Positions 4,464 to 11,649 of a stretch of DNA of 64,000 nucleotides are shown in pieces. The position numbers and the translations under genes were made by a program. Numbering within the stretch: the first letter of the stretch is position 1; each line of letters begins with the position of its first letter. The notes under the pieces were generated by a model. The model did not search any database and was not told where the DNA came from. It saw nothing but the letters and a program-made list of their open reading frames with translations. Source of the DNA: Patescibacteria group bacterium (GTDB lineage: Bacteria > Patescibacteriota > Minisyncoccia > Phycocordibacterales > UBA918); the NCBI GenBank assembly GCA_038061715.1, contig JBBTYP010000003.1, positions 12,034 through 76,033 on the forward strand, given 5' to 3'.

Positions 4464-5609
4464 TTAATGATGATGGTGGTGGTGAGGTAATGAATCAGAT
4501 TGACTGTCAACTTCATGCTTTTGGTAGTACCAGGCCGCGGCAGCAGTAGTAGCCGGCACCGCCATAATGAGTCCGATGCTACCAACAATAATGCGCGTGA
4601 GTTCGGCCGCCACCACTTCTTGATTGAAAATCGCGGACATATTACTCCCCGCTTTGGCATAAAGTAAAATTAGTGGCAACGAAACCCCGACATACGCGAG
4701 AGCGAGGGTATTTACGATTGAACCAATATGGTCGCGCCCTACTGCAATCGCGCGAGTATACAGTTCCTTAAAATTAAACAGTGGGTTGGCAGCCTTGAGT
4801 TGTGCGACCACAGAGGCTTGCGTAACTGCGACATCGTCAAGGATCCCTAAAATACCGATGATAATTCCTCCCAGTAGTAAACCCGCCAGATCAAGCGAGC
4901 CATTAGTCGCAAAGTTGAGATATACCGAGGCGTCATCACTAAAACCAGTCAATCGCATTCCCCTCACACATACATATGATAAGACGCAAGTAATAAGCAC
5001 CGCACTGAAAGTTCCAATAAACGAAATAGTCGAGCGGGCGTTAAACCCGTGTGTACCAAAGAGAGCAAAAGCTAAAATAATGGCGGCGATACCTAGGGTA
5101 GTTAGCGCTGGATCATATCCTGCTAAAAGCGCTGGGACTAGCACGAAGATAATCGCAGCAACGCTAATTGCTAGCGAGAGCAGTGCCCGCACCCCTTGCC
5201 ACTTGGAGATACAAAGTAGCATTGCTACAAAGAGTGCAAAAATACCAAGGAGCATCGGCCGTCTTTCATAAGTTGAGAAAGTGATGTACTCATCGCCATT
5301 GATAGTCACAACTCGATTAACAAAAACCTTATCGTCCACCTCAAGCTTTATCATCTCAACGGTCATTGGTACGACTTCCCCTTTCTTTTCACCTTCCTCT
5401 AGCAGTACCCTGACCTCTTGTACGCTGGTGGTGGTGTCGGTGCCAGTCACCTCCCGTTCTTCACTACTTACAATTTCAAGCACAGTCCCTGAGACCGTTT
5501 CTTTTACATCTTGATGGATCGTCTCCGCTAGAGAAAGAGCGGGAGAAAATAAAGCCAGGCTAGCGATAACACAAACCCTAGAAAATAAGCCGCGCAACAT
5601 AAAATCCAA
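4464..5609 (-). CDS. YibE/F-family multi-pass membrane protein with natural C-terminal His6 tail
   Basis: 381 aa; signal/TM N-terminus, ~6 TM helices, general YibE/F-like architecture; ends ...SLPHHHHHH. Confidence 0.55.
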   Translation of the reverse strand: MDFMLRGLFSRVCVIASLALFSPALSLAETIHQDVKETVSGTVLEIVSSEEREVTGTDTTTSVQEVRVLLEEGEKKGEVVPMTVEMIKLEVDDKVFVNRVVTINGDEYITFSTYERRPMLLGIFALFVAMLLCISKWQGVRALLSLAISVAAIIFVLVPALLAGYDPALTTLGIAAIILAFALFGTHGFNARSTISFIGTFSAVLITCVLSYVCVRGMRLTGFSDDASVYLNFATNGSLDLAGLLLGGIIIGILGILDDVAVTQASVVAQLKAANPLFNFKELYTRAIAVGRDHIGSIVNTLALAYVGVSLPLILLYAKAGSNMSAIFNQEVVAAELTRIIVGSIGLIMAVPATTAAAAWYYQKHEVDSQSDSLPHHHHHH

Positions 5610-6260: not shown

Positions 6261-6333
6261 GGCGGCTATAGTACAACGGTTAGTGCATCGGTTTGTGGTA
6301 CCGATAATTCGGGTTCGATTCCCGGTAGCCGCC
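6261..6333 (+). tRNA. tRNA-His (GTG) with genome-encoded G-1
   Basis: Cloverleaf folds with 8-bp acceptor (G-1:C73), D-stem GTAC/GTGC, anticodon stem TCGGT/ACCGA, loop TTGTGGT, T-arm TCGGG-TTCGATT-CCCGG; no CCA encoded. Confidence 0.85.
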
Positions 6334-6339
6334 CTCGTA

Positions 6340-6379: not shown

Positions 6380-6853
6380 TTAAGACTCAAAATCGTTAAG
6401 TATTTTTAGGAAGCTTTGTTGTGTGGCTTTAGGAATTTGTGGATGGTTGAGCAATTCAATCTTTCCCTTGCGTTTAATGATTTCTTTTACCTCTCCGAAG
6501 TAAAACCCCTGAACAGTTGCCAGAAAAAGATAGGAAGGATTCCAGCTTTGACTCATGCGTTTTACGATACTGAGAACTTCACTATTTTTAAGTGTTTTTC
6601 GATATTTTACTTCGATCAGATGGACAACCTTTGTCTTGTTATTGATGACAGCGAAATCTGGTGCTGTTCGAAGAGCTTCCACCATCTCATCATTCTCGCC
6701 CTGCCCCCTACCTACCAACTCAGGAATTATCTTCTCATAGCCAAATTCCAGAACAGTAAACTGTCCAGTCGAACGAAGCATTTGAGCGAACACTGTCTCA
6801 GCAATTTTTCCTTTAACTAAATTCCTCGCAAAAGATACTTCGTTATTTTTCAT
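6380..6853 (-). CDS. Hypothetical protein with PD-(D/E)xK nuclease-fold-like motifs (YraN/Hjc-like), immediately downstream of the type IIG RM gene
   Basis: 157 aa; GKIAETVFAQML...PDFAV...HLIEVKYRK arrangement (E...D...E-x-K) reminiscent of restriction-endonuclease-like fold. Confidence 0.35.
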   Translation of the reverse strand: MKNNEVSFARNLVKGKIAETVFAQMLRSTGQFTVLEFGYEKIIPELVGRGQGENDEMVEALRTAPDFAVINNKTKVVHLIEVKYRKTLKNSEVLSIVKRMSQSWNPSYLFLATVQGFYFGEVKEIIKRKGKIELLNHPQIPKATQQSFLKILNDFES

Positions 6854-6872
6854 AGTATTTATTTATACTTTA

Positions 6873-9281
6873 TTACTTAAGAAAACCTAAGTCGAATACT
6901 TGCGGTCTTATCTTCTCAGACAACGACTTATACGCTAGCTCAAAATCTTCAAACGATGCTTCTGGTAAACTCGCAGTCTCATTACGTTTTTTAAGTGCAT
7001 TTCGAATCTGATACCATCCTACATCTGGACGATTGAGCTTAAGGGCTTCTCGCACAGTATAGGGGTCAGTGTGCTCAAAATAAGCAGACCAAAGTTTCCG
7101 ACCCTCCTCAAGTACCACTTTGGATTCTACTGACAAATTTTTATCTTTAAGATACTTAACCATAAAATCACTCTCGAAGCGCTCTGATGTTCCCACTTCA
7201 CTTTCAGTGAAAGGAATAAAGTGATTCACTATGCTCCATTTTTTTCCGTTCCATTCCAAATCATTTGCACTTGCAGTAAGGTTACTACCATTAAATAGCA
7301 TCCAAATTAAACAGTCATTTTTAAACTCTTCACTCAAATCTTCTGTCGGTTGCAAAAACTGGTCTCTGTCATTTTGCCAAGTTGGCTTAATGATGCGTCT
7401 AACGGTAAACATTACAGCCGCCTTCCACAAGTCTGTTGGTGTAACAAAAATCGTACCAGCACTTCCAAAACCAGAAGAATATATAGATGTTGTTTTGGAA
7501 TGTTGCACATCACTACCTTGGAATACTAAACATGCAATGGCATCGTTAGCCCACTTAGTACCGCGCAAATCCTTTGTGACAGTTGCTGGTGATACAGCAT
7601 TTTTAAGGGGTATAACTTCTAAATCATTTGCCTTCGGTCGAACTATCCAATTGCCCAATAAACTTTCCTTGGGCGCATTGTAAAAAATCTTCTTCCCAAT
7701 TGGTCGAGCGTCATTATCTAAGACTTCAGTAGAAATTTCTTCAAACTGACTTATTTGACCATCTCCATGACTAGTACGCCAAATAAGGAAACCAATCGGG
7801 AACACACCTTTAATCCCGTCGAAAGATTTACTAGGAACAATGAAGCCACCCATATAATCTGCATCCCACTGTTGGCGAAAATCTTCAAAATTTGGAGAAT
7901 TTACATATTTAAGTTTACTGAACATTGCTAATGTCGCATTTGGTAGTTCTTTAGCAAACCGCACCATAAACTGCACAAAAAGCTCGCGAGCTGCGTAACC
8001 TTGCTCATCCATCAATTCTGCAACTTTTGTTTTAGAAACATTTTTCTTTGACTCTGAACGTTCATTATCTGAAATGTTTTCTGCATTCATTGCTTCGGCA
8101 TATGGAGGATTTATCAGTACTAAAATTTTCTTACCACTTTTAATAGCTCGACGAAGTGACTCCGGCAGCTTATTTGTTAGAGTGTAATCAATTTCTCCTG
8201 AATCAGAAATATCATCATTTAGATAATCATACTGAAAACGTTCAGCTGCGACACATGTCTTAGTAGCCTTCATAACATCTATATCAGCTTGATCGAGCGT
8301 ACTCATATAGATATTACGATGGTTACTATGCTTTACCTCGAGGTTTCCTACCCCGCAACACATATCCCATACAATGTATTCATCTTGCCATCCCTCCCCA
8401 AGAGTCTCGGTGAGTTTATTGTACGCAGCATCTACAACATGGAGCGGGGTGTAATAAGCACCCTTAAAGCTACGCTCATCGAGAGGAATAAGACTATCTC
8501 GTCTCTCTAGAAGATAAGTACGGTACTGCTCTTTTGGTGGCTTGTGATAAATAGCCCAAAAGCGTCGGTATCCTTCTTTGTTACTCAATTCGTATAACTT
8601 TCCATTGAGCGAGAAGACCGGCATTCCATCCTTATGAAGAAGCTCAGCAGGCATATCCTTGATTGAGGAAACCGTACCGTCATGCATTATGTCTGCAAAA
8701 AACAAAAGAGCGTAGTCTTCTTCCTGAACCCCAGCCAGCTCACGACCAATCATTTCAACCCAACGATCAAACACTTGTTTTAGATTGCTTGGAGTAATCT
8801 GAGTTCGGACAATCTCTCCTTCCTGAATAGCATTTTTAACAGCATCAATGAATTCCTGTTCGTGTGTCTTTATATTAAATGACACCATATAGGTACCTAT
8901 GTGCGCTGATACAGCTGCAAGTGCCTCTGGAGTTACATCACTAGCTGACTTACCCCATTTAATATCTTTCCGCTCCAAGACAGGTAAAGCGTCGATAGTC
9001 TTCATGATTGCTGCCTTATTCGTATCAATAACAGCTAAAAAAGGTGGCAGCTCTTCTCCATGATTTAGCCACTCTTTTGCGTAGTGCAAAAGTTGAGTAA
9101 ACATTGAAAAGCTACTGCAGGCACTACCAGCTTTTGCTTCAAACCATATTTCCTTAGTTTGAATATCAATTAAGCCCTTTTGATAGGCTTTTAGTCCCAG
9201 CGCTTTAATATAAAAATCCTTAACGTCCTCTTCACTACTGGCATTCTGAAGCTTTTCGTATAAAGTCATACTGAAAAGCAT
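6873..9281 (-). CDS. Fused type IIG/IIL restriction endonuclease plus N6-adenine methyltransferase (MmeI-like)
   Basis: 802 aa; N-terminal D-x9-E-x-K (LIDIQTKEIWFEAKAG) as in MmeI nuclease; methyltransferase motif I VWDMCCGVGNLE, GAYYTP, motif IV LVLINPPYAEA; C-terminal ~300 aa putative TRD. Confidence 0.75.
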   Translation of the reverse strand: MLFSMTLYEKLQNASSEEDVKDFYIKALGLKAYQKGLIDIQTKEIWFEAKAGSACSSFSMFTQLLHYAKEWLNHGEELPPFLAVIDTNKAAIMKTIDALPVLERKDIKWGKSASDVTPEALAAVSAHIGTYMVSFNIKTHEQEFIDAVKNAIQEGEIVRTQITPSNLKQVFDRWVEMIGRELAGVQEEDYALLFFADIMHDGTVSSIKDMPAELLHKDGMPVFSLNGKLYELSNKEGYRRFWAIYHKPPKEQYRTYLLERRDSLIPLDERSFKGAYYTPLHVVDAAYNKLTETLGEGWQDEYIVWDMCCGVGNLEVKHSNHRNIYMSTLDQADIDVMKATKTCVAAERFQYDYLNDDISDSGEIDYTLTNKLPESLRRAIKSGKKILVLINPPYAEAMNAENISDNERSESKKNVSKTKVAELMDEQGYAARELFVQFMVRFAKELPNATLAMFSKLKYVNSPNFEDFRQQWDADYMGGFIVPSKSFDGIKGVFPIGFLIWRTSHGDGQISQFEEISTEVLDNDARPIGKKIFYNAPKESLLGNWIVRPKANDLEVIPLKNAVSPATVTKDLRGTKWANDAIACLVFQGSDVQHSKTTSIYSSGFGSAGTIFVTPTDLWKAAVMFTVRRIIKPTWQNDRDQFLQPTEDLSEEFKNDCLIWMLFNGSNLTASANDLEWNGKKWSIVNHFIPFTESEVGTSERFESDFMVKYLKDKNLSVESKVVLEEGRKLWSAYFEHTDPYTVREALKLNRPDVGWYQIRNALKKRNETASLPEASFEDFELAYKSLSEKIRPQVFDLGFLK

Positions 9282-9312
9282 AGCATAAACTAGAAATGCT
9301 GGTTATTTTAAG

Positions 9313-9768
9313 TTAGATAGCAGCTGACTCAAGACGGGCTTTGAATAAGCTTATGATTCCACTTTTCTCTAATTTATAATTCTTGCCGTTGAAAGCTATT
9401 GAAGTCCCCTCCTCTTTGGCTAAATAAACTAAAATTGGTACATATCTTACTGGTCCATCTTTACCGAAAAAAATTGCAGCTATTATCCTTAAGCCCCCTG
9501 ATTTATCGGATTTTGGTTTTGTAGTTACTTGTCGAAACTTACACACCTGCACTCTCCCGCCAGTCTCATCCACTTCTTCAAGTAAAACAGTTTTTGAGGT
9601 TGGCACATGGAATCTAGGGCTATTTCTTAATTCCCAAAACTTACCCACCAAAAATTTATGATGTGCTTTTACGTCGAGCTTAAGACTCTTTATCTTTTTT
9701 AAACGTTTTTCATCCAGCTTCAGGAACGGTCCTTCTGCAAATTCCATAAATTTAAGCAGCAAGCGCAA
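9313..9768 (-). CDS. Hypothetical protein, putative toxin partner (RelE/ParE-superfamily-like C-terminus), overlaps upstream gene by 17 nt
   Basis: 151 aa; GGLRIIAAIFFGKDGPVRYVPILVYLAK resembles RelE/HigB-type core; translational coupling with Panacea-like gene. Confidence 0.3.
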   Translation of the reverse strand: MRLLLKFMEFAEGPFLKLDEKRLKKIKSLKLDVKAHHKFLVGKFWELRNSPRFHVPTSKTVLLEEVDETGGRVQVCKFRQVTTKPKSDKSGGLRIIAAIFFGKDGPVRYVPILVYLAKEEGTSIAFNGKNYKLEKSGIISLFKARLESAAI

Positions 9769-10276
9769 ACAAACCTGTTTTCTGCAGTTTATTCAGAGAA
9801 ACCTCTTCGGGCTCCTCAGCAACATCCTCTTCATTAGAACGATATTGTGCGTTCTCAAAATCAACAAGGTGATGGTAATCAGCCATCAAATAAACTGGAT
9901 CCTGGTGAGCAAGGTGTACGATTTGATTAACATTCAATTCTGAATAGCGTAAACATGTATTTTCAATTGATTGAATTTTCTTTGCATCCAAAAACTTTAG
10001 CTCCATTTCTCCAGCACCTATAAAATTTCCATCTGTAATGGTGAGAAGATTCTCAGAAACTAACTCCTCGATTGCCTTTTGAGCAATTTTGTTTATTGGG
10101 GTTGGACCGAAGGTATTTTTAATATATGAAACACTAGTGAGTCTTTCATTAAATTTCTCAAAGTAATCAGCTTCACTGAAAAAGCACAATTTCCAAAGTT
10201 TTGTTTCTTTCAACATCCTTGGATGATTTGCTGCTATATACCAAATTAACTCTTTAAATTCTTCTTTCTTGCTCAT
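9752..10276 (-). CDS. Panacea-domain (DUF4065/SocA-like) putative antitoxin
   Basis: 174 aa; KLWKLCFFSEADYFEKFNERLTSVSYIKNTFGPTP matches KLqKLlYfa...GPv core of DUF4065. Confidence 0.45.
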   Translation of the reverse strand: MSKKEEFKELIWYIAANHPRMLKETKLWKLCFFSEADYFEKFNERLTSVSYIKNTFGPTPINKIAQKAIEELVSENLLTITDGNFIGAGEMELKFLDAKKIQSIENTCLRYSELNVNQIVHLAHQDPVYLMADYHHLVDFENAQYRSNEEDVAEEPEEVSLNKLQKTGLFALAA

Positions 10277-10452
10277 AGTTTTATTATACGCTAAATACTT
10301 AATAAGTTTTCAGCTTCTCCTGTTGACCCAACAGTACCATATAATTCATATTTGTCTAAGAAAAGCTTGGTATGTAGAGAGTTGGGTCATTTCTGTGCTC
10401 AAACATAGTTCTAACTTCCTCTGCACCGTCGTCCAACCTGGTGGTATGTTAT

Positions 10453-10491
10453 AAAAATACGGCCCCGTTCTCACAGGGCCGTTTTAGTTTA
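10453..10491. terminator. Bidirectional intrinsic terminator downstream of ParB-like gene
   Basis: aaaaat-acggccc-cgttctcaca-gggccgt-tttagttt. Confidence 0.6.
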
Positions 10492-10506: not shown

Positions 10507-11649
10507 TTACCTGGCGGCTCGTATGATACGAGCCGAGCGAGCAAGAATGGAAGCTATCCGCTCAAGATCGTCAGCGACAACTGCACCGTGTTGGATCGTA
10601 AGTTGTTTCAGATCACCGGTTATATTTTCGAGACTGAACAACGCTGTCACTCGTTGGGCTCGTTCGTCCAGGGTTAAGATCAAGCTTTTGCCCTGATCCC
10701 AGGAATCAGAAGGTTTCTTCTGCCTTGAAATACCTGAGGCTCGACGATGGTGACCAGCCCGGGCCATGAGTTTTTGAACTCCCAGATTACCTTTCTTGTA
10801 ATCAATAAATGCTTGTACTTGCTCTTCATCAGGGAGATCAGCGACTTGTTTGATGATCGAAAACGGAATTGATGGATTATCGGCAACATGTTCAAGAGCA
10901 TGTTGACACAATCGTTCGCCAGCAATTTTTCGATTCGATAACCACACCGAATTGTTTTGCCCCAGACTCTCGGACACCTGCGCCTGTGTAAAACGGACGC
11001 CAGTATCTGGACAGGGTTCAAGCAGCCGTCTTGCCAGATCGATTTCTTCCCAAGGAGTATGTCCTTCTCGATTGAAATTGGCCACTGCCGATGTGAGCAG
11101 AGCCTCGTTGCGACCCTTGTCCTTAGACGTCTGCACTGTCGCCCGGAAAGGAACGCCAGCGATCTTACAGGCTCGAAGCCGTCGTTCGCCATCTCGCAGC
11201 TCATACTTCCAATCAAGATCGGGAGTTTCAACAACCAAACCGGGTTGAACCTGCCCCCGATGTCTGATCGAATCTGCCAAGGCATTGATACGCTCCTGAT
11301 CAAAATGTTTCCGCGGCTGATCTGGCAGTGGTGCGATTTGATCAACGGGGATCTCCAGCACTCGATCACCAAGAGTGATGTGCTGAAGCGGCGTCTCCAC
11401 CTCCTCTATAACGACACCTCCATGGAATTCACATAAACCAGTTTCATAATCTAACTGACCTTTGCTCCGATCATTTTCAGGGAGCAATAAACACCTTCGA
11501 CACAAACGCCATTTTGATTTGCATTTGCTGCGGCAGCAACCGTCCTGGTTTTTAGAGACAATGCTTGTTAGTTGACGACAAATATCCAAAGTCGCCGGTA
11601 CATGTGTAAACACGCACTTATGTGTCTCAATAACTCTCTGTTCAGACAT
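10507..11649 (-). CDS. Stand-alone ParB-like nuclease-domain (ParB/Srx) protein with Cys-rich N-terminal region; gene is GC-rich relative to flanks
   Basis: 380 aa; IPVDQIAPLPDQPRKHFDQERINALADSIRHRGQVQPGLVV...LRDGERRLRACKIAG is the ParB N-terminal domain signature (GERRxRA); N-terminal ~90 aa has many Cys (CCRSKCKSKWRLCRRC). Confidence 0.7.
   Translation of the reverse strand: MSEQRVIETHKCVFTHVPATLDICRQLTSIVSKNQDGCCRSKCKSKWRLCRRCLLLPENDRSKGQLDYETGLCEFHGGVVIEEVETPLQHITLGDRVLEIPVDQIAPLPDQPRKHFDQERINALADSIRHRGQVQPGLVVETPDLDWKYELRDGERRLRACKIAGVPFRATVQTSKDKGRNEALLTSAVANFNREGHTPWEEIDLARRLLEPCPDTGVRFTQAQVSESLGQNNSVWLSNRKIAGERLCQHALEHVADNPSIPFSIIKQVADLPDEEQVQAFIDYKKGNLGVQKLMARAGHHRRASGISRQKKPSDSWDQGKSLILTLDERAQRVTALFSLENITGDLKQLTIQHGAVVADDLERIASILARSARIIRAAR

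Follow-up and report, generated by a model that had tools for sequence, protein, structure and literature searches.

The gene at positions 6873–9281 (minus strand) of the window, the 64,000-nucleotide stretch of a Patescibacteria group bacterium contig analysed here, encodes a protein of 802 aa that we regard, with a probability of about 0.65, as an enzyme that needs no partner to cut and methylate DNA. It would belong to a large, unnamed family remotely related to MmeI and DrdV, and the adjacent gene for a 157-aa protein would be functionally separate from it. The system is of an ordinary kind, but the sequence family is new. Both ORFs were found where the first-pass annotation had located them, the smaller one at 6380–6853 on the same strand, separated from the larger one by a gap of 19 nt.

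Domain Architecture of the 802-aa Protein

The true start of the 802-aa gene is probably at 9269, which gives a protein of 798 aa, because the homologues and the NCBI call (P0001, 798 aa) begin at M5 of the ORF. The N-terminal part (aa 1–155; 8817–9281, minus strand) is a predicted PD-(D/E)xK nuclease domain, recognised by residue conservation and containing E17, D39, E48 and K50. A D-x9-E-x-K nuclease motif had been described here before; the motif is present and conserved, but its spacing is one residue shorter, D39-x8-E48-x-K50 (LIDIQTKEIWFEAK). In the AF2 model, the triad sits in an alpha-beta-beta-beta-alpha-beta context; the nuclease domain of MmeI itself is disordered in 5HR4. The nuclease fold of this domain is predicted from the motif, the order of the secondary-structure elements and whole-chain alignments rather than from a domain-level structural match.

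The nuclease domain is followed by a connector (aa 156–270; 8472–8816, minus strand), which is mainly helical in the AF2 model (helices 164–177, 187–198, 235–244 and 251–273) with a small beta sheet at 212–232, and which occupies the same position as the helical "arm" of MmeI and DrdV. A gamma-class N6-adenine DNA methyltransferase domain (aa 271–500; 7782–8471, minus strand) was recognised by its motifs, a weak match to Pfam N6_Mtase and a profile alignment to DrdV. Its motifs are GAYYTP (X, 274–279), DMCCGVGN (I, 306–313, with CGVGN at 309–313), NPPY (IV, 391–394) and F487; they follow the gamma-class order X, I, IV (NPPY), VIII and align to DrdV. The putative target-recognition domain (TRD; aa 501–690; 7212–7781, minus strand) is the least conserved segment in the close clade and ends at NHFIPF (686–691). 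The remainder (aa 691–802; 6876–7211, minus strand) is a C-terminal domain modelled as helices by AF2 with pLDDT mostly above 90 (blocks 85–99); MmeI, too, has conserved terminal helices after its FPFP motif. Nuclease, methylase and TRD are arranged in that order in one chain, which is the type IIL/IIG architecture, and BpuSI and Eco57I-type IIG enzymes are likewise single-chain nuclease–methylase–TRD proteins.

Conservation and Predicted Fold

Among 60 diverse relatives (26–78% identity), E48, K50, D306, G310, N391-P392-P393 and F487 were invariant, and D39 and E17 were kept in at least 90%. The gamma-class motifs CGVGN and NPPY, which the first-pass annotation had pointed out, were confirmed in the protein and were conserved in the same relatives. 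This motif conservation is far above chance.

A structure prediction, suggested earlier as a check, was obtained with AF2 from the 60-sequence diverse alignment and reached pLDDT 89.9 and pTM 0.79, while a shallow alignment of sequences 69–88% identical to the query gave pLDDT 55. When the model was compared with the PDB by Foldseek, DrdV (E 5.6e-13, 763 columns), MmeI and BpuSI (seventh, 902 aligned columns) ranked among the top matches. The top-ranked fold matches were bifunctional enzymes aligned over 739–902 columns, their N-terminal domain included. The A3 family profile matched DrdV with E 2.3e-6 across motifs X/I and from IV onward. PDB searches with a single sequence or a shallow profile gave no match for either the 802-aa or the 157-aa protein, and PADLOC, NCBIfam and PHROGs returned nothing for the 802-aa protein beyond weak generic methylase matches.

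Distribution and Probable Self-Sufficiency of the 800-aa Family

Homologues of the 802-aa protein (the 800-aa family) form more than 5,000 clusters at 90% identity and 1,895 at 50%, and were found in at least 582 species-level genomes. They occur across many phyla, in cultured strains and on small plasmids. Carriers include Kaistella gelatinilytica G5-32, Dyadobacter psychrotolerans AR-3-6, Chryseobacterium piscium CCUG 51923, Limnohabitans sp. Rim47, the Acinetobacter plasmid pYUSHP14-3 and the Fluviibacter plasmid pSHINM1. All sources in the results that give the members a name use "hypothetical", since the family is not covered by any Pfam, NCBIfam or PADLOC model. If its members were recognised as compact type IIL-like enzymes, an annotation gap in defence-system censuses would be filled, and the family could yield new restriction specificities. 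Since homologues are present in cultured strains and on small plasmids, the prediction is directly testable.

No recurrent partner of the gene was found in 82 distinct loci and on two small plasmids. The commonest families among 52 same-strand neighbours were Mrr_cat, IS200-type transposase (Y1_Tnp) and AAA_33, with two occurrences each, and the loci shared no flank similarity. On plasmids of 9.8–16 kb, the gene is a main cargo, the downstream genes are unrelated, and no annotated methylase or nuclease partner was detected. By this measure, members would need no separate methylase or nuclease gene. The earlier proposal of a single-chain nuclease–methylase–TRD enzyme that works without partner subunits is supported by the lack of a recurrent neighbour and by the fold matches to DrdV and MmeI. 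The family travels alone, as one gene, between phyla and on small plasmids.

The 157-aa Gene

The 157-aa gene (6380–6853, minus strand) is a candidate for the PD-(D/E)xK fold, on its conserved motif and weak clan matches. Its family has 924 members. In 20 homologues, E19, P65-D66, E81 and K83 were invariant and V82 was kept in at least 90%, so the E...D...ExK motifs read from the single sequence (E19, PD65-66, E81-V-K83) were upheld. Matches to nuclease-clan Pfam models were consistent but all below threshold (TnsA_N in 18 of 20 homologues, HSDR_N_2 in 15 and REase-ARP in 11). A TATAAAT −10-like box lies some 8 nt ahead of the ATG; most loci have a promoter-like box at a constant distance, and nucleotide homology among the loci is limited to about −24 to +13 around the ORF. 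The protein is not a free copy of the enzyme's nuclease domain (hhalign between the two families, probability 5%), and a free copy of a neighbour's domain was also rejected on testing.

A 157-aa homologue was present in one of the 82 distinct loci with an 800-aa homologue, and an 800-aa homologue in one of the 85 loci with a 157-aa homologue. Conserved co-occurrence of an 802-aa enzyme with a 157-aa accessory was not found. A conserved partner of any other kind was also sought among the 157-aa loci, and the largest neighbour cluster covered 6 of 85. Synteny with the window extends, in L090 and L178, over the 157-aa gene, tRNA-His, YibE_F and RNR, yet neither locus has the 800-aa gene. In L175–177, an XhoI-type methylase and nuclease occupy the same position, beside a 157-aa protein 96% identical to that of the window. 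The 157-aa gene is therefore most likely an independent gene and not a partner of the 802-aa enzyme; the idea that it is a dedicated accessory fails on the co-occurrence counts, the empty site and the near-identical protein beside a different restriction-modification (R-M) system. The first-pass annotation had also weighed an unrelated housekeeping protein. An unrelated gene is essentially what was found, but it resembles defence-island cargo and not a housekeeping gene. Our best guess is that the protein may be a solitary DNA nuclease of the defence island.

Small subunits of heterodimeric type IIS enzymes supply the catalytic centre that cuts the second strand, and they are a precedent for reading the 157-aa protein as a generic add-on to R-M enzymes, especially single-chain ones, that would provide a second catalytic centre for the other strand or process restricted DNA. 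Of 60 distinct 157-aa loci, 5 have an R-M gene as the immediate upstream neighbour on the same strand, and so do the window, L009 and L104. In L093 the upstream gene encodes a true MmeI-family enzyme, 6 nt away; in L099, an Eco57I/TaqI_C type IIG enzyme at 14 nt; and in L175, an XhoI-type R-M system at 6 nt. L122 and L133 have a DPPY methylase and a C5 methylase, respectively. Because R-M genes of several unrelated families are followed immediately, after 6–22 nt, by a 157-aa gene, a generic functional link is still conceivable. However, most members have no upstream R-M gene, many neighbours are helicase-nucleases, unrelated enzymes or proteins without a Pfam match, and the gene is almost never carried by 800-aa homologues. 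The 157-aa protein does not co-vary with its neighbour, since proteins 96% identical adjoin entirely different R-M enzymes, and XhoI-type systems are already complete. A promoter-like box of its own precedes the gene, and the sites beside it that are empty or hold other cargo agree with an insertion hotspot. We consider a generic add-on unlikely and prefer the reading of an independent gene.

A Proposed Insertion Slot between a Mini-ORF and the 157-aa Gene

The 802-aa and 157-aa genes lie in a low-GC island bordered by a tRNA-His gene (6262–6334, plus strand; ARAGORN), which the syntenic loci L090 and L178 also carry. Two further genes precede the 802-aa gene. One encodes a SocA/Panacea antitoxin (9752–10276, minus strand; Pfam SocA_Panacea, E 1.9e-7) and the other a 151-aa protein with no assigned family (9313–9768, minus strand), which overlaps the SocA gene by 17 nt. 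Together (9313–10276, GC 0.35–0.38) they may form a toxin-antitoxin-like pair that is a second cargo of the same slot. The pair is missing from L009, where the 800-aa gene comes directly after a mini-ORF. The GC content of the four island genes is 0.35–0.40, compared with 0.46–0.49 in the flanks.

A remnant of the same mini-ORF (LDDGAEEVRTMFEHRNDPTLYIPSFS, then a stop; 10356–10436, minus strand) marks the upstream edge of the slot in the window and was recognised by a 74-nt match to L009, located upstream of the 800-aa gene of that locus. The mini-ORF is multi-copy. It was confirmed upstream of the XhoI-type R-M module in L175, and in the empty site L088 an intact mini-ORF overlaps the start of the 157-aa gene at TAATG. 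The 74-nt element appears to be a coding sequence, as judged from its substitution pattern. Searches ruled out a tRNA or an Rfam family, no attC-type core motif of an integron was evident by eye, and the element was absent from the viral contigs searched.

From the empty site and the XhoI-type R-M system in related genomes, R-M cargo appears to enter a hotspot upstream of the 157-aa gene. This gene and the mini-ORF would flank a slot for the insertion of defence cargo, and the slot in the window would have received the 802-aa gene and the SocA-type toxin-antitoxin pair, giving a four-gene low-GC island beside tRNA-His. The surroundings of the 802-aa gene showed no integrase, transposase or long target duplication. 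That R-M genes behave as mobile units at hotspots of insertion is known (Furuta et al. 2010, PMC2853133). The present case resembles those described there in that one locus holds different R-M systems in related genomes, insertions lie at gene starts or stops and composition is biased; it differs in the borders of the slot, which are a multi-copy mini-ORF and a small putative nuclease-fold gene. It is also quite unlikely, in our view, that these two elements form a conserved Patescibacteria docking platform that takes up and exchanges R-M and toxin-antitoxin cargo and in which the 157-aa protein acts with the docked enzyme, for example as a trans-acting second nuclease or a recombination nuclease. 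The slot would be a small, concrete case of defence-cargo exchange in streamlined Patescibacteria genomes.

Relationship to Characterised Enzymes and Proposed Mechanism

In sequence terms, the 802-aa protein resembles the characterised type IIL enzymes only marginally, and only in its methylase motifs. Identity to DrdV (type IIL, PDB 7LO5/7LVV), which has 1029 residues against 802 here, is 10–13%, and sequence similarity is detectable in the methylase motifs only. The Pfam Eco57I model gave a weak match in 4 of 60 family members.

The protein could also be a methyltransferase only, either an orphan or a specificity/modification subunit, for example of BREX, with an inactive nuclease-like domain. 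Sequence methods detect just the methylase part, and BrxX/PglX and CamA/M.BseCI are among the fold matches. However, the nuclease triad is invariant or nearly so throughout a wide family, neither BREX genes nor other conserved neighbours were found in the 82 distinct loci or on the plasmids, and the best fold matches are bifunctional enzymes that align with the N-terminal domain included. A methyltransferase-only role is thus distinctly improbable. True membership of the MmeI family (type IIL; Morgan et al. 2009; PDB 5HR4), as claimed in the first-pass annotation, with cutting about 20 bp from the site and methylation of one strand, is scarcely credible: the five Pfam MmeI domains (MmeI_N, MmeI_hel, MmeI_Mtase, MmeI_TRD and MmeI_C) matched 0 of 60 members at E up to 1, whereas the protein of L093, a genuine MmeI-family member, gets 1e-23 to 1e-90 from the same models, no NCBIfam match was found, MmeI in the PDB was not reached by phmmer or profile hmmsearch, the full-length similarity with E < 1e-20 by which Morgan et al. 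2009 defined the family was not observed, MmeI is longer by about 120 residues, and the motif spacing of the 802-aa protein is x8, not x9 as in D70-x9-E80-x-K82 of MmeI.

For a self-contained cutting and methylating enzyme, the DrdV and MmeI papers provide the template of the mechanism, and cleavage, methylation, modification of one strand and the need for oligomerisation are proposed by analogy with them. The C-terminal TRD would bind an asymmetric DNA site. The gamma-class methylase would turn an adenine out of the helix and transfer a methyl group to it from SAM. Cleavage of unmethylated DNA at a fixed distance would fall to the PD-(D/E)xK domain, which the connector arm carries, and would probably require that several DNA-bound molecules first associate, as is the case for DrdV and MmeI.

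Within the close clade, conservation of the TRD is fairly high, with a majority-residue frequency of 0.55–0.75. This departs from the strongly diversifying pattern that is expected of a TRD. Swapping of the TRD in the wider family was considered and rejected, since 98 of 99 full-length representatives could be aligned over this domain, with an identity of about 31%.

Sequence family and predicted structure of the 802-aa protein

Both ORFs were found exactly where the first-pass annotation had placed them, the 802-aa ORF at 6873..9281(-) and the 157-aa ORF at 6380..6853(-), on the same strand with a gap of 19 nt. The real start of the 802-aa gene is probably at 9269, because the homologues and the NCBI gene call begin at M5. 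The methylase motifs CGVGN (309-313) and NPPY (391-394) were both present, as reported. The N-terminal nuclease motif was also present, but its spacing was D39-x8-E48-x-K50, one residue shorter than the D-x9-E-x-K proposed. Among 60 family members (26-78% identity), E48, K50, G274, T278, D306, G310, S327, N391, P392, P393 and F487 were invariant, and D39 and E17 were conserved in at least 90%. Given this conservation, both the nuclease and the methylase active sites of the family look maintained.

The 802-aa protein had a sub-threshold N6_Mtase match alone in Pfam (E 0.0015), no match in NCBIfam, and weak, generic methylase matches in PADLOC. It had been assigned to the MmeI family. The five Pfam MmeI domain models, the defining test of that family, gave 0 matches at E values up to 1 among the 802-aa protein and 60 diverse relatives, so the protein lies outside the MmeI sequence family. 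On a protein of comparison locus L093 that does belong to the MmeI family, the same models scored from 1e-23 to 1e-90. For the 802-aa protein, searches of the PDB with phmmer and a shallow profile found nothing. A profile of 60 diverse members matched the type IIL enzyme DrdV in the PDB (E 2.3e-6), and the alignment spanned motif X/I (GxFYTP...DxxxGxG) and motif IV onward (NPPY...).

The AlphaFold2 model of the 802-aa protein, made with a diverse alignment, was confident (pLDDT 89.9, pTM 0.79). Foldseek against the PDB placed DrdV at the top (E 5.6e-13, 763 aligned columns), followed by BpuSI (type IIG) and MmeI (type IIL), and later by the methylase-TRD enzymes CamA, M.BseCI, BrxX/PglX, BsaXI and LlaBIII. 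The structure prediction proposed in the first-pass annotation thus returned type IIL/IIG enzymes as the best fold matches. The model falls into five predicted parts, including a mostly helical connector with a small beta sheet up to about residue 270, a methylase domain (271-500), a beta-rich putative target-recognition domain (TRD; 501-690) ending in NHFIPF, and C-terminal helices after the TRD; a C-terminal TRD had been expected. MmeI has a D70/E80/K82 nuclease motif, a helical arm, a gamma-class methylase, a TRD with an FPFP end and C-terminal helices (PMC2731913). The predicted layout is parallel to this and to the published description of DrdV (bioRxiv 10.1101/2021.01.06.425610). We regard the 802-aa protein as type IIL/IIG-like, a known kind of enzyme, but as the representative of a sequence family that is new and unannotated.

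By analogy with DrdV and MmeI, its action would be type IIL/IIG-like as well. An asymmetric target would be bound by the TRD. In the methylase, N391/Y394, Y276/Y277 and F487 would form a pocket that takes up a flipped-out adenine, which would then be methylated, probably on a single strand. Cleavage of DNA lacking the modification would fall to the nuclease domain on the connector, at a constant distance from the site, and would follow the association of several enzymes bound at their sites.

Distribution and autonomy of the family

Clustering of the family at 90% identity gave more than 5,000 clusters, and at 50% identity 1,895. The family occurred in at least 582 species-level genomes and was "hypothetical" in every naming source among 120 clusters listed. 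One clade with 65-88% identity was found in Patescibacteria, Bacteroidota, Pseudomonadota, Spirochaetota, Ignavibacteria and Campylobacterota, an identity level that implies spread by horizontal transfer.

Besides its architecture and conserved residues, the genetic autonomy of the family was observed. The flanks of the 800-aa homologues were unrelated between loci, and the shared unit is therefore essentially the 800-aa ORF. Mrr_cat, the IS200-type transposase (Y1_Tnp) and AAA_33 were the commonest families among 52 same-strand neighbours, with 2 each; the absence of a recurrent neighbour supports the proposal that the enzyme works without partner subunits. Small plasmids carried a homologue as a main cargo with unrelated genes downstream; the homologues of Acinetobacter pYUSHP14-3 and Fluviibacter pSHINM1 were 63% and 58% identical to the 802-aa protein, respectively. 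No homologue was found in phage records, and the whole fold was common to one metagenomic phage protein. The TRD could be aligned across almost every full-length representative, with an identity of about 31%, indicating gradual divergence rather than TRD swapping. A few distant relatives carried extra domains, namely an N-terminal TIR domain in P0299 (1068 aa) and an LPD3 polyvalent-protein domain in P0312; P0388 had a weak LAGLIDADG-like insertion.

The 157-aa gene is not a dedicated partner

The E...D...ExK motif described for the 157-aa ORF was present as E19, P65-D66 and E81-V-K83; among 20 homologues E19, P65-D66, E81 and K83 were invariant and V82 was at least 90% conserved. TnsA_N, HSDR_N_2 and REase-ARP matched the members consistently, all below threshold. 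We consider a stand-alone DNA nuclease with the PD-(D/E)xK fold the most likely identity of the protein. hhalign showed no relation to the nuclease domain of the 802-aa protein (probability 5%), and an HMM of the 157-aa family found a related domain in none of the neighbouring proteins.

A partnership of the 802-aa enzyme with the 157-aa ORF, as had been suggested, is not supported. The 157-aa gene was present at one of 82 distinct loci with an 800-aa homologue (L009, whose enzyme is 86% identical), and an 800-aa homologue at one of 85 loci chosen via the 157-aa family (L104); it was absent from all 44 such loci whose upstream sequence extended for 2.5 kb or more. At L090 and L178 the 157-aa gene, tRNA-His, YibE_F and ribonucleotide reductase lay in synteny with the window, yet the 800-aa gene was missing, and homology between the window and L090 ended 6 nt ahead of the 157-aa ATG. 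Outside the interval of about -24..+13 around the ORF, the 157-aa loci shared no nucleotide homology. Most loci had an extended -10-like box, TGnTAnAAT (TATAAAT in the window), whose end lay about 7 nt before the ATG, which makes the 157-aa gene look like a transcription unit of its own, probably leaderless.

A generic functional link of the 157-aa protein to neighbouring R-M enzymes is unlikely. R-M components of unrelated families made up 5 of 60 distinct upstream neighbours: a true MmeI-family enzyme (L093 17-3226, gap 6 nt), an Eco57I/TaqI_C type IIG enzyme (L099 816-4474, gap 14 nt), R.XhoI of an XhoI-type pair (L175 2561-5474, gap within 6-14 nt), a DPPY methylase (L122) and a C5 methylase (L133). 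Many of the other neighbours were helicase-nucleases, and both kinds are expected from a defence-island hotspot. Near-identical 157-aa proteins adjoin unrelated enzymes, which argues against a specific subunit interaction.

Extended TGnTAnAAT boxes also ended about 7-12 nt before start codons on both strands of a repeated intergenic element of about 80 nt (L088 3943-4023 and 4823-4903; L008 18-109 and 4594-4685). These sequences suggest that the Patescibacteria studied here have compact promoters arranged back to back that give leaderless transcripts.

Insertion slot and mini-ORF

A 74-nt stretch of the window, 10361-10434(-), matched L009 immediately upstream of its 800-aa gene. The stretch is a mini-ORF reading ...EEVRTMFEHRNDPTLYIPSFS up to its stop; judged from its copies, which differ mostly by synonymous or conservative changes, it is coding. 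At L088, the empty site of the slot, an intact mini-ORF (MLGDVVEDVRTVFEDRNDVTLYIPMFNCVSVATIS and stop) overlaps the 157-aa start at TAATG. The slot is occupied by the 800-aa gene in L009; in the window it contains the 802-aa gene together with a SocA/Panacea toxin-antitoxin pair. In L175-177, an XhoI-type methylase and nuclease were directly followed by the 157-aa gene, whose product is 96% identical to that of the window; in L175 the mini-ORF lay upstream of this module, and a Gabija-like UvrD and OLD pair converged from the other side past the 157-aa gene. The four genes of the window from 6380 to 10276 had a GC content of 0.35-0.40, against 0.46-0.49 in the flanks, and abut tRNA-His. There is published documentation of R-M genes that act as mobile units and undergo allelic substitution at one locus (PMC2853133).

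Copies of the mini-ORF were located at window 10356-10436(-), L009 145, 941, 4603 and 5878, L008 942 and 4150, L088 4242 and 4912, L098 2253, L109 1199 and L175 2446. This multi-copy family (M(L/P)GDVVEDVRTxFE...D.T.YIP.F, 26-35 aa) always shared the strand of the cargo genes, its DNA core GGGCGACGTCGTAGAGGATGTTCGAAC contained two 8-nt palindromes, and no match was found in Rfam or viral contigs. We take its motif to be similar to the N-terminus of AbrB/VapB-type antitoxins. Several copies were interrupted straight after ATG-YTG-GGC, by a 205-nt GC-rich segment between GGGCG flanks at L088 4026-4229 and at L008 110-929 by one of 820 nt that contains a 93-aa HNH-like ORF, suggesting that small mobile elements in turn target the start of the mini-ORF.

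Other features of the region

At window 9313-10276(-), the gene for a SocA/Panacea-domain antitoxin (174 aa) shares 17 nt with the next gene downstream. The 151-aa product of the latter matched nothing in Pfam, PADLOC, NCBIfam or PHROGs and is a candidate for a new toxin paired with a Panacea antitoxin. A ParB_N / parB_part-domain protein of 380 aa at 10507-11649(-) had an unusual Cys-rich N-terminus of about 90 residues, and its gene was followed by a strong terminator-like hairpin (10459-10482). The YibE/F-family membrane protein at 4464-5609(-) ended in a natural hexahistidine tail (...LPHHHHHH). A LOOT RNA (Rfam RF03000, 60.2 bits) was located at L009 12701-12816(+), about 4 kb downstream of the 800-aa gene.
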